This document shows positions 1 through 10,446 of a DNA stretch of 64,000 nucleotides, piece by piece. Every line of letters starts with the position of its first letter. Position 1 is the stretch's first letter. The stretch is from NCBI GenBank assembly GCA_964016885.1, contig OZ024743.1, forward strand, positions 61,318,001 through 61,382,000, given 5' to 3'. The notes under the pieces are model-generated. The model searched no databases and was not told where the DNA came from. It was given only the letters and a program-made list of their open reading frames with translations. Position numbers and translations under genes: made by a program. The stretch comes from Eledone cirrhosa (taxonomy: Eukaryota).

Positions 1-2009
1 GGACCACAAATTCGTGATCTGTGTGCTTGACTTAGATAGGCTTCATAGACGAGGACTCGGCTACTGGAAGCTAAACGCGTCCTTACCAGCGTGCAAGGCC
101 TACAGAGACCGGATTAGCGAACTAGTTAAGCGGGCGTTGACGGGGTCCATCGTCAACAACAAGTGGTGGTTTGCTCTGAAAAGAGCAATTAGAATAGAGT
201 CCATTAGGTTTAGTAAGGCTTTAGCAATAGAGAAAAATAGAGCAGAGGGAGAATTAGTTAGAAAATTAGACGAGGCGCTTAGCAAAGGCATCGCGACCGA
301 CGTACTTGCGGCGAAATTGGCCCTTGAACAATTCTTCAATGCAAAGCACGAAGGCTGCGTTGTCAGAGCTAGGGTGCGTGCTCTCAGACACGAGGGGACG
401 AAAGCCGTTCAATGGGCCCGGGTGGCGGAGGCGCCATAGTCACCGTAGTGGTGTCACCGTAGTGGTGTCGAACACCAAACACATCGAGGCGATCGGCACT
501 ACACTAAGAGAATACGAAGCGGTGACAGGAGCAATGATCAACCAGGAAAAGTCAGTGGGTCTGCAGCTCGGCACCTGGAGAGGCAGGTCCATGCCGTCCA
601 ACAGCGTCGTCGGGCGCTGGACGGACGGACCGGTTAAATTGCTAGGGGTCTGGTTCGGTCCAGACCTCCAGACGAACAAAAACTGGGACGAGGTGACGAG
701 CAGAGTGGCTTCTCTCACCCAGAAATGGGCCGAGAGGAAGCTATCCCTGAAAGGTCGAGCGGAGGTGGCTAACGCGTACATCGCCTCCGTCATCTACTAC
801 CGCCTGACCGTCGTACCTTGTCCTAAGCCCCGCCTGACTGCGCTGGAGCGTTTGCTCTTTCGCTTCTTGTGGAAGGGACGCGCTCCGATGGTCAGGCGGT
901 CCATCTGCTGTCAACACCCGCTACGTGGAGGGCTACGACATCTCCACCTCTTCCTCGACGGTGATCAGGTGTGGTCGCCGTTTGCTAGACACGTTTTTCC
1001 CCAGCTCGTCTCCTTGACGGAGCTGCAGTCCTGGGTCAAGCGAAGACCGAGAGGGAGCGCTTGGAGACTGGAATGTCTTCAGGCGCTCACAGCCCTCGAC
1101 CAATCGGGCAATGTGATCGGTGGAAACTCCACCTTGGCGTTCTATAGGGGATTAGTGGAGGGTAAGAGCGACGACGTACTTGGAGAAACTCTAGGCGTCG
1201 ACGAAAATCAACTAGCCAATCTCTTCGGAAGGACTTTCGGGCCGGGGCCTATGGACAACTTCCAGAAATCCCTGGCCTCGCAGTGCTACCGGGGAGCTTT
1301 GCCAGTTCGGGATAAACTCTACAGGCATGGAGGTGCCGTCAGCCGAGCATGTCCGAGATGCGCACAGGGCGACGAAACCGTCCTGCACGCACTCGTCCAG
1401 TGTCCGTGCATTGCTGACTTGTGGGTTTATGTCAAACACCTGCTGTCACGTGTAGGACGGATCCAGCTATCAGCTGAGTCCATCGTGAGGATTGCCCCGC
1501 CCTCTACCTTTAGCTGGGAAGGGCAGGCAGTTTTTATCTGTCCGGTGGCCATAGCAAAAGAGATAGTATGGTGGACACGTTTGAAAGGGCTGAAGACGAG
1601 CACTTGCCTCTTCGGTGATGCCCTGATTAACTTTTTCAAATTTCATTTGAAAAGGAAAATCAGGGTAGAGAGGGAAGTGCTCTCTTCCCAGCATTTTGTT
1701 GAAAGATGGGTGAGAGAAGCAAGTATGGCCCGAATGAATGGGCCTTCTCTGAGTATGTGTCTGTAAATTAAAGGTGGAAAACTGGGAGAGGGCACTTGCC
1801 CTGGTGGTCAGGGTCACTGTGGTCTTTTAATGGGCTTTCTCCACAAATGTCCCTCGGAAGTCTCCCCCCTATTGGGGAATTTTTCTTTGTTATTTTATTA
1901 CATCCTCTGTTTTTTTACACGCAGAAATGCCCATTTGTACCGTCCTGTATTGTCCTGTACTGTCCTTAATGTCTACTTTATCTAAACCCTTGTGGTTAAT
2001 AAAGAAAAC
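1..2009 (+). mobile_element. Tx1-group (L1 clade) non-LTR retrotransposon, defective copy (runs off window start; internal deletions in ORF2)
   Basis: Near-identical to 7073-10080 but lacks ~7507-8462 (RT core incl. YADD) and a 42-bp segment; ends CCCTTGTGGTTAATAAAGAAAAC followed by (TTA)n. Confidence 0.93.
14..1766 (+). pseudogene. Disrupted ORF2 (endonuclease C-terminus/linker fused to post-RT region and Cys/His motif)
   Basis: ORFs 14-439 and 306-1766 match parts of the 6399-9818 protein; CPRCAQGDETVLHALVQC retained; RT catalytic region missing. Confidence 0.9.
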
Positions 2010-2035
2010 ATTATTACTATTATTATTATTGTTGT

Positions 2036-4036
2036 TATTCCTTGAATCTCAGTCATTGATGTTGGTTAACTGGAAAGTCCGTTGGATTGAATATCAAGCC
2101 ACTACCTGCAGCCTCAGATATTCAGGACGTATCGGAGGGTTCTTGCTGTTCCAAGCAAGCATGCCTTTTGAAGCGTTCCAAAAAGCGTGACGGGGCCGAT
2201 TTTCTTAAACCATCCCTGGAAACTTTTGGAGATAGTCCCCAGTGCGCCTATGACAATCGGGATCACTTTGACTTCATGGCAGTTCCAAATCCTTTTCACC
2301 TCCCACTTTAGGTCCTGGTATCGGTTAATTTTCTCCCTCTCCTTCTCTTGCACTCTCGTGTCGAAAGGGCAGGCCACATCAACAATCAGACACGATCTTT
2401 TTTCTTTGTCCACAACCACCAGGTCAGGTCTATTGTGTTCCAGTTTTTTGTCCGTCTGTATCCTAAAATCCCACAGCACCTTCACCTGATTGTTCTCCAT
2501 CACCGCCTCTGGCCTATGCTCATACCATTTCTCAGAGTGTGGTAAATTGTTTACTTTGCACAGGTGCCAGTGGATCACCCTGCCCATCACATCGTGTCTC
2601 CAGCCCTTATAGTGGGTCTGGGCTAGGTGTTTACACTCGGACACAATGTGAGCCACAGTCTCCTCTCTCTCTCCACAGATCCTGCACAGTGGGCTAGCCT
2701 CCTCCTTGTAAATATGGTGCTTCAACCACTTCGTTTTGAGGGCCTGCTCCTGCGCAGCCATTAGCATTCCTTCTGTAGCCTTTTTGAGGTCTCCTCTTCT
2801 CAACCAGTTCCATGTCTGTGGATCTCTAAATTCAGTTTTCTCAAAGAAGGTACTATGAAGGGATTTTCCCTTAAGGCTGCTCTTCCTCCTTGATGTTATT
2901 TCCTCCTTGGACATCCCCTGGCCTACTGTCCCTTCCTTCAGTACAGTTCTGAGCATTGGCTCCTTACTATAGGTCACGTATTTGTATAGGTTGTTTTTCT
3001 CCATCTGAACACAGTCCTCTATGCTGATAAGACCGCTTCCACCCTCAGATCTCCTTAGGTAGAGTCTATCGACATCACTCCTCTTGTGGAACATGTAGAT
3101 AGTCAATAGCTTCCTAGTCTTCCTATCCATTTCTTTTTGTTCAGCAACATTCCATCTCAGAATTCCAGCACTGTACCTAATAATAGACACAGCTCGGGAA
3201 TTTACTGCGCTTATGGCATTTCTGCTGTTCAGATGTGACTTCAATACGCTCCTTACTCTCCGAATGTATTCAGTTCTTAACAATTCCTTCATTTTTTTGT
3301 TCTTTATGCCATCAGCCTCCAGAACGCCCAAATACTTGTATCCTTCCTCAGAGTCAATTTCCTTTATCATCTCACCTGTTGGTATCTGGATCCCGTTACT
3401 TCTGCTCAACCTACCCCTCTTCATCACAATGACTCCACATTTACTAATACCAAACTGCATACATATATCACTGCTGAAAATACGGACAGTGTCAACAAGC
3501 ACATCCAACTCCTTCTCACTTTTCCCGAAGAGCTTAAGATCGTCCATGAAGAGGAGGTGATTGATGGTAAGCTCTCCCTTTCCCAACTTGTATCCTCCTC
3601 TCACTTTTCGCAGCATAATGGTCAAGGGCATCAGGGCAAGGACAAACAACAGAGGGGACAGGCTATCTCCCTGGAAGATACCTCTCTTGATCTTCACGCT
3701 TCCCAAGGATACTCCAGTTGATGTCAACTCTGTCTCCCAGGACCCCATACTCCTGCCCAGCAACTGTCTGATGTTATCTGCCACCTTGAAGATCTCCAGG
3801 CTTTTGGTGATCCAAGAATGAGGCACCATGTCAAATGCCTTTCTGTAGTCTATCCATCCCATGGCAAGATCAGTGTGTCTCCTCCTGCAATTCCCCATTA
3901 CCATCTTATCAATAAGCAACTGGTCCTTTGTACCACGTGACTTCTTTCGGCATCCTTTCTGTTTGTCCGGTAACAAGTTGTTTGTGTGGAGGTGATGGTA
4001 GATTTCCTCAGACACAATGCTCGTCAGCAGTTTCCA
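2036..4036 (-). mobile_element. R4/Dong-like non-LTR retrotransposon (RT + restriction-like endonuclease), 5'-truncated
   Basis: Flanked on both sides by (TAA)n; short 3' UTR; truncated within RT at [11 protein letters not shown]. Confidence 0.88.
2114..4015 (-). CDS. Reverse transcriptase + CCHC zinc knuckle + PD-(D/E)xK restriction-like endonuclease (N-terminally truncated, open 633 aa)
   Basis: [66 protein letters not shown]...IVDVACPFD...EKINRY. Confidence 0.92.
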
Positions 4037-4266
4037 TTATTATTATTATTATTGAATGCCATGGTTGACGGAGGCTCGGCTCTGTAAGGTATAGTAATTT
4101 TTAACCGTTAAAACAATTGTAAATTGTTTAAAACTTGAACCAAATTGTTGATAAAGACACCCTCCTCCTCGTGAGAGGGGTCTTTCTGTCCGTTATTTGG
4201 CCCTTCGGGGTTAAATAGCCAGTTATTGGGGTTTTGTACCCAAAATTTCATTTTAAACAAAAAAAC

Positions 4267-10137: not shown

Positions 10138-10139
10138 GT

Positions 10140-10350
10140 TATTGTTATTCCTTGAATCTCAGTCATTGATGTTGGTTAACTGGAAAGTCCGTTGGATTGA
10201 ATATCAAGCCACTACCTGCAGCCTCAGATATTCAGGACGTATCGGAGGGTTCTTGCCGTTCCAAGCAAGCATGCCTTTTGAAGCGTTCCAAAAAGCGTGA
10301 AGGGGCCGATTTTCTTTAACCATCCCTGGAAACCTTTGGAGATAGTCCCC
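10140..10350 (-). mobile_element. R4/Dong-like element, ~210-bp 3' end only
   Basis: Near-identical to ~2030-2240 (a few substitutions); (TAA)n on both sides. Confidence 0.9.
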
Positions 10351-10351
10351 A

Positions 10352-10446
<95 letters not shown>
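10351..10446. repeat. (TTA)n-(TA)n-(TG)n compound microsatellite
   Basis: Direct reading. Confidence 0.95.

Follow-up and report, generated by a model that had tools for sequence, protein, structure and literature searches.

The stretch of DNA analysed here (the window) comprises 64,000 nucleotides of Eledone cirrhosa (assembly GCA_964016885.1, contig OZ024743.1, positions 61,318,001 to 61,382,000, with the first letter at G000:C4:61318001). It begins within an array of two unrelated types of long interspersed nuclear elements (LINEs), a Tx1-type element with an apurinic/apyrimidinic endonuclease (APE) and an R4/Dong-type element with a restriction-like endonuclease (RLE), which are found on the same three-base microsatellite. 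Direct reading of the sequence gives the order Tx1-type(+), (ATT)7, Dong-type(-), (ATT)6, Tx1-type(+), (ATT)19, Dong-type(-), (ATT)16, with nothing else between the four elements, just as the initial annotation had described it. The first element is the 3' part of a Tx1-type copy (copy a, 1-2009, plus strand), the leader and first open reading frame (ORF1) of which differ from those of the second copy, and which carries two internal deletions, about 950 bp near 438 and 42 bp at 930, that break ORF2. A tail-to-tail junction of (ATT)7 that includes one ACT (2010-2030, all tracts being given for the plus strand) connects it to Dong-type copy a (2031-4035, minus strand), which is 5'-truncated to 2,005 bp and has an open frame from 4036 to 2114 encoding a reverse transcriptase (RT), a CCHC knuckle and a restriction-like endonuclease motif. 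After a head-to-head junction of (ATT)6 (4036-4053) follows Tx1-type copy b (4054-10080, plus strand), which is full-length and very young, with both ORFs open: a 5' leader (4054-4266) precedes ORF1 (4267-6363, 698 amino acids, with one CX2CX4HX4C knuckle and low-complexity stretches) and ORF2 (6399-9818, 1,139 amino acids), which comprises the APE domain at 6399-7130, an RT with the YADD motif, and a C-terminal zinc finger. The second tail-to-tail junction, (ATT)19 (10081-10137), leads to Dong-type copy b (10138-10350, minus strand), 5'-truncated to about 210 bp, and two bases further the array ends with (ATT)16 (10353-10400), to which a (TG)n run is attached. Different truncation points of the two Dong-type copies and scattered substitutions between copies had been noticed before, and both can be confirmed, with 79 mismatches in 2,009 aligned bases for the Tx1-type pair and 4 in 214 for the Dong-type pair.

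ORF2 of copy b matches the Pfam families PF03372, PF00078 and PF13966 and has the catalytic motifs; its best relative of solved structure is human L1 ORF2p (E = 3.5e-52), R2 scoring far lower, and its closest named homolog is an Argonauta hians protein (73%), in line with an octopod host. The CX2CX4HX4C knuckle of ORF1 lies at residue 373, and a CCHC knuckle is a mark of Tx1 ORF1; a Pfam search with ORF1 gave no family at E<=0.001. The element thus has the two ORFs and the ORF2 with N-terminal APE, RT and C-terminal zinc finger that characterise the L1 group and the Tx1 clade, and also the target-sequence preference of the Tx1 clade (1,610 of 1,655 5' ends, see below). In the frame of Dong-type copy a, RT, CCHC knuckle and PD-(D/E)xK motifs are found at residues 163, 451, 536 and 569, and the best solved relatives of the protein are R2 proteins. 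The order of RT, CCHC knuckle and PD-(D/E)xK restriction-like endonuclease in a single ORF, as well as (TAA)n on both sides, agree with R4/Dong. Both elements are probably members of the respective clades, as judged from domain architecture and target rather than from a tree with named references; the homologs retrieved for either element included no named reference that would separate Tx1 from L1 proper, or R4 from HERO and NeSL. There are two Dong families in this genome, Dong1 and Dong2, with 43% protein identity over 507 residues. Their full-length copies have one long ORF, broken in the copies read, that is preceded by about 1 kb of 5' sequence. Some Dong1 copies contain a tandem repeat of about 320 bp in this 5' region, and the full-length Dong2 copy of L154/L155 has there a 3' fragment of a short interspersed nuclear element (SINE) in Dong sense. 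The N-terminal region of the Dong protein is modelled with a pLDDT >89 over residues 51-120, and the top VIA-align rows of this model are mostly Myb, SANT and trihelix domains, including R2Bm 147-215, with Z scores of only 5-6 (rmsd 2.2-4.6, 55-73 aligned); Foldseek and Pfam gave nothing significant for this region, and no N-terminal zinc finger was seen by eye.

In the 50 kb inspected to the left of the window, Tx1-type copy a turns out to be full length, with its start about 2,850 bp left of the window. Further leftward follow (ATT)5, an older full-length Tx1-type copy, (ATT)6 and a truncated Tx1-type copy, and leftmost lies a Dong2 copy on the minus strand. Taken as a whole, the array extends over about 25 kb with the order D2, T, T, T, D1, T, D1 (T, Tx1-type; D1 and D2, Dong1 and Dong2), in which the polarity is constant but the alternation is not: the leftward continuation that the initial annotation had suggested to look for stops at three Tx1-type copies arranged head to tail. 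Copy a belongs to a subfamily in which another leader and ORF1 are joined to the same ORF2 at one fixed switch point, which in copy a (L001) lies about 754 bp left of the window. As this 5' module and the switch point recur at three other loci (L147, L161/L162 and L164), copies a and b represent different subfamilies, and the fixed position of the switch between leader/ORF1 and ORF2 points to module exchange within the Tx1-type family.

Element ends were counted genome-wide by exact sequence patterns, which gave 7,811 Tx1 3' ends and 1,655 full-length 5' ends of the copy b subfamily, and likewise 8,368 Dong1 3' ends and 1,068 Dong leader starts. Directly before the full-length 5' ends of the Tx1-type b subfamily, ATTATTATT is present in register in 1,610 of the 1,655 cases (97%), and the Tx1 end is followed by (ATT)3 in 8,584 cases and by (AAT)3 in the same register in 4. 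Most Tx1 copies outside such tracts or in random orientation, as would be expected if the initial annotation had been mistaken, is therefore not what the genome contains. For Dong, the tract has the TAA sense next to 46 of 50 3' ends and next to 26 of 30 full-length 5' ends. In flank samples from the first 130 Mb of contig C1, in which matches to one library entry that included a SINE were labelled SINE and one low-complexity match of 34.6 bits was counted as unassigned, 108 of 180 sides had a Tx1 or Dong neighbour across the tract, and all 108 were in the predicted polarity. The convergence of an APE-type and an RLE-type element on one microsatellite with opposite polarity, proposed from the window, thus agrees with the genome-wide counts of element ends and with the flank samples, and the two types meet at thousands of junctions and in many mixed clusters of a single polarity. 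The polarity of tracts agrees in 0.91-0.93 of the comparisons within 10 kb, and in about 0.5 beyond 100 kb, being lost past 30-100 kb; megabase-scale polarity domains were rejected on this basis. Perfect ATT tracts of at least 6 units number 83,318 genome-wide, and the median longest perfect runs on the sides of insertions are 8, 9.5, 9.5 and 16.5 units. Among the first 30 tracts listed, 25 touch a Tx1, Dong or SINE end, and 5 adjoin the 3' end of one other element. The (ATT)n tails of this other element are for the most part followed by unrelated sequences on the right (L116, L117, L121, L122, L129, L144, L145, L078), and it may seed founder tracts. Distant relatives from a metagenome scan, most of them 23-32% identical, had an ATT tail in 0 of the 13 cases inspected.

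In target-primed reverse transcription, the endonuclease first cuts the strand complementary to the tail as read on the sense strand. The sense strand reads (ATT)n at both ends of the Tx1-type APE element, and (TAA)n in the case of the Dong-type RLE element. With these tails, the first nick of the Tx1-type endonuclease would be expected in the TAA strand, priming then taking place on an RNA tail of (AUU)n; for the Dong enzyme, the corresponding strand would be TTA and the tail (UAA)n. As human L1 nicks the T-rich strand, the Tx1-type APE would have the reverse preference. Each insertion would turn one ATT tract into two, so that a locus that has already been hit would be hit more often, and a founder tract would give rise to an array that retains its polarity. 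Such growth would be self-reinforcing for every ATT-user, that is for several Tx1 subfamilies, the two Dong families, and a SINE that is likely carried by Tx1. The contact of 25 of the first 30 tracts with Tx1, Dong or SINE ends is consistent with such a multiplication. The self-extending array that the initial annotation had in mind holds insofar as tract is left on both sides of an insertion, but the target is regenerated for every ATT-user alike and not reciprocally for two partners. It is thus very probable that the window contains four independent insertions of two families that share one (ATT)n/(TAA)n microsatellite, with opposite orientations that are fixed, likely because each family nicks its own strand, and with an order that is statistically indifferent.

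Several observations weigh against this interpretation, and they concern the order, the targeting and the strands. With regard to order, it had been proposed that the families alternate because each favours the junction made by the other, so that arrays extend by turns. The window does read T-D-T-D, and Tx1-to-Dong1 junctions are 1.4 to 2.4 times as frequent as flat expectations: Dong1 follows the Tx1 3' end in 20 of 100 cases, compared with 8.4 of 100 expected genome-wide (p=0.0004), and for the first 19 Mb of C1 a directly compiled table gives 4 of 12 as against 19 of 166 (p=0.052, odds ratio 3.9). Compared with the approximately 14 of 100 at any regional tract of at least 6 units, the same 20 of 100 give p=0.11, this expectation being based on extrapolated tract densities, and an even sample of 200 kb contained 11 tracts only, too few for a null. 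The junction figures were obtained from intersected coordinates of the first 100 matches rather than from a direct genome-wide junction count, and in the flank samples neighbouring copies are not independent, with some junctions occurring in two sets. In these samples, the ratio of Tx1 to Dong as left neighbour is 17:19 at Tx1 5' ends (n=50) and 15:17 at Dong 3' ends (n=50), and as right neighbour it is 4:17 at Tx1 3' ends (n=50) and 3:16 at Dong 5' ends (n=30), which means that the mix of neighbours is independent of the anchoring element on either side (Fisher p=1). Dong follows Dong in 16 of 30 cases and Tx1 in 17 of 50 (p=0.11), same-family junctions are as common as mixed ones, and besides the three head-to-tail Tx1-type copies left of the window there are Dong-Dong and Tx1-Tx1 runs elsewhere. 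Eight other clusters, picked for looking dense, are all polarised and have a mixed order, as exemplified by T D D D D D D D D D T or S T D T D T T T S. There is a modest clustering of Tx1-to-Dong junctions, yet Dong follows Dong at least as often, and the element order within arrays is likely indifferent, the alternation in the window probably being due to chance rather than to a rule; if the odds of the two types are roughly equal, about one in eight sets of four elements would be alternating. True alternation with reciprocity is thus improbable.

With regard to targeting, the Tx1-type element might have no target preference at all and merely write its ATT tail, the clusters then resulting from tolerated insertion into old elements. 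About half of the truncated Tx1 copies indeed lack a clear upstream ATT run: among 15 5'-truncated copies, there is an ATT run upstream in about 7 and a TTC run in 3 (one having both), and the target specificity looks looser at these copies. Single Tx1 copies are also found in ACT- or GTT-rich tracts, and because of these sites and the TTC runs it is likely that near-cognate triplets are tolerated; the Tx1 family Koshi targets TTC. The ATT tails with mostly unrelated right flanks at the other element mentioned above indicate that tail-only sources exist. Nevertheless a lack of targeting is very unlikely, since ATT precedes 97% of the full-length 5' ends in exact register, Dong copies with many different cut points are found past the upstream tract, which makes this tract older than the Tx1 insertion, and tolerance alone would not fix the orientation. 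This orientation has exceptions at L026, L256 and L341 and in an inverted block at L159/L160. As to the strands, those of nicking are deduced from the tails and should be taken as putative, and target duplications are unreadable inside a repeat. Joint mobility of Tx1 and Dong as a single unit, through read-through and 3' transduction, is highly unlikely: a Tx1 3' end adjoins a Dong 3' end in 17 of 50 cases, but the other 33 Tx1 ends have other neighbours, the Dong ends vary between junctions, and two Dong1 variants as well as Dong2 are involved. A local segmental duplication of one Tx1-Dong unit with subsequent deletion, which the initial annotation had named as a competing explanation, has a known counterpart in this genome, where L057 and L058 share one Dong2 truncation point. 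For the window it is refuted by the copy trees and has a next to negligible probability. In the Tx1 tree, which was built from the last 1.1 kb with 16 of 30 loci (14 truncated or deleted loci were dropped), copies a and b diverge by 4.9% and fall into separate supported clades, and their 5' halves differ. The last 1,098 bp of copy b are identical to L034 on another contig, about 200 bp of Dong-type copy b are identical to 4 distant copies on another contig, and Dong-type copy a is 2% away from Dong-type copy b and has closer copies elsewhere, so that the two units are sisters in neither family tree. The trees thus speak for independent insertions, and against segmental duplication, at this locus.

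Some of the loci just mentioned are of interest in their own right. L057 and L058 lie 6.9 kb apart in a region (G000:C1:55441788-55455624; L057, L058, L149-L152) in which a Dong2 fragment and a Tx1 unit are tandemly duplicated, the surrounding run consisting of six Tx1 copies with 99% identity to copy b of the window. At L159/L160 (G000:C1:35803052-35805626), it is a Dong1-Tx1 block that is inverted within an array of opposite polarity. Runs of (TTC)n are often found directly left of an ATT tract or of a truncated Tx1 copy (L039, L043, L048, L206, L213, L215, L220, L029, L031, L249).

Besides the LINEs, a SINE of about 220-250 nt belongs to the ATT-users. It is abundant, can be seen for example at L104:1951-2169 and at about 46560-46745 of the window, and has a tRNA-like head as judged by eye. 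Its polarity is that of Tx1 in 16 of 17 assigned neighbours, and over the final 30 nt it is similar to the Tx1 end, with z scores between 0.8 and 4.8 in nine pairs, which weakly suggests Tx1 as the likely carrier. The window contains the same sequence twice, at 28590-28720 and 56430-56720, each time with an (AAT)n tract, and in the second copy a SINE lies inside the tract, with tract on both sides, so that the two represent a filled/empty pair. A sister Tx1 lineage that is about 71% identical (window 46811-48415, minus strand) has kept the 3' motif and ends in (TATC)n in 6 copies, and in other cases sister Tx1 ends adjoin (TG)n (one case) or a TGTAA-rich satellite (one case). Loci of this kind are L342, L347, L350, L356, L357 and L362, as well as L005 near 48 kb left of the window, and with such ends the group has radiated over several simple-repeat targets.

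Dong1 and Dong2 have a nearly identical leader of about 220 nt (z about 22), which is present in full-length Dong1 and Dong2 copies (L157, G000:C1:26019278-26023841; L154 and L168, G000:C1:2802192 onward), continues into Dong1 or Dong2 at 30 of 30 leader loci (L166-L195), and is followed by a short decayed frame. The leader of copy b (4054-4266) shows weak similarity to leaders from other Tx1 subfamilies as well as to those of full-length Dong1 and Dong2. For the comparison, the A-rich ATG end was trimmed, and block shuffles as well as 914 genomic segments served as controls. Against three Tx1 leaders, the Dong leader gave z scores of 4.4, 3.5, 3.8, 1.6, 4.4 and 3.5, which were reached by 0, 0, 2, 11, 0 and 0 of the 914 segments and are as high as those of two of the three Tx1-Tx1 pairs. 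Untrimmed antisense leader controls were null, and Rfam searches on 4 loci found no ribozyme and no other credible family at the leaders. All five leaders measure 212-227 nt up to the first ATG context, a length that is partly set by the cutting. These similarities suggest a common origin of Dong and Tx1 leaders, and the alternative would be a convergence of AT-rich promoters. One may tentatively go further and consider a guild that trades parts, in which the Dong1/Dong2 leader was captured from a Tx1-type APE element, the SINE rides on the Tx1 tail, and most long ATT tracts are guild-made, but this extended picture is doubtful. If true, the leader capture would mean that a promoter has crossed the deepest divide within the LINEs.

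APE and RLE elements are known to converge on one multicopy target in the case of R1 and R2, which both insert into the 28S ribosomal DNA. These two use distinct fixed sites in the gene, have the same orientation, and do not multiply their target by insertion, whereas the pair described here shares a repeat tract, has opposite orientations, and would multiply the target. In SART and TRAS of Bombyx mori telomeres, two families occupy a single simple repeat with opposite orientations and build up arrays (PMC10088271), as is the case here. However, both are R1-clade APE elements at telomeres, and the Tx1-type/Dong pair combines APE and RLE elements of different clades on an interstitial (ATT)n microsatellite at thousands of sites dispersed along contigs, so that it works like SART/TRAS without being a member of that system. 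Dong on (TAA)n is known in molluscs (PMC7998251), in Octopus vulgaris Dong-R4 has been active recently and is abundant (PMC13282606), and coleoids show expansion and activity of both Dong-R4 and L1-Tx1 (PMC13282606, PMC8967140), the passages on these coleoid elements making no mention of targets. What differs here is that two 43%-identical Dong families have a nearly identical leader and a target in common with an APE element. Target specificity is common among RLE, Tx1 and R1 elements (PMC4640811), and Tx1 families on (TC)n, (TTC)n, (TTCC)n and (TTTC)n have been described, including Kibi, Koshi and crocodilian families (PMC4494074). These are likewise Tx1-clade APE elements specific for simple repeats, but the repeat is (ATT)n here, with sister lineages ending in (TATC)n and other repeats. 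In crocodilians, SINEU is carried by Tx1-Mar, a Tx1 family with which it shares the target preference (PMC4494074); the SINE of Eledone differs by its tRNA-like head (by eye), its Tx1-like 3' end of about 30 nt, and its microsatellite target. A common 5' module in otherwise different LINEs has been ascribed to template switching for Nimb/RTE and ingi/L1Tc (PMC4758252), where it measures about 70 bp, whereas here the module spans an entire leader (about 220 nt), and the resemblance is evident for the Dong1/Dong2 pair but only weak when Dong (RLE) is compared with Tx1 (APE).

In the literature searched, neither an ATT-specific Tx1-type family (which Repbase or Kojima and Fujiwara 2004 may list), nor an APE/RLE pair on one interstitial microsatellite, nor a leader common to two distant Dong families and weakly Tx1-like was found, and the novelty of the pair is provisional. 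As the concept has a precedent in SART/TRAS, the surprise is moderate. The system nevertheless offers a natural large-sample case of two chemically unrelated endonucleases that use opposite strands of one three-base repeat, with young intact copies available. The multiplication of the target is a testable cause for the origin of long ATT microsatellites and for local piles of elements, such as the transposable element hotspots in octopus that have been reported without a mechanism in the excerpt of PMC13282606, and a repeat-specific APE of fixed orientation is of interest for targeted insertion. Outside the array, a piece of another LINE frame, which we take to be RTE-like, lies at 11006-11431 of the window on the minus strand, with no Pfam family at E<=0.001.

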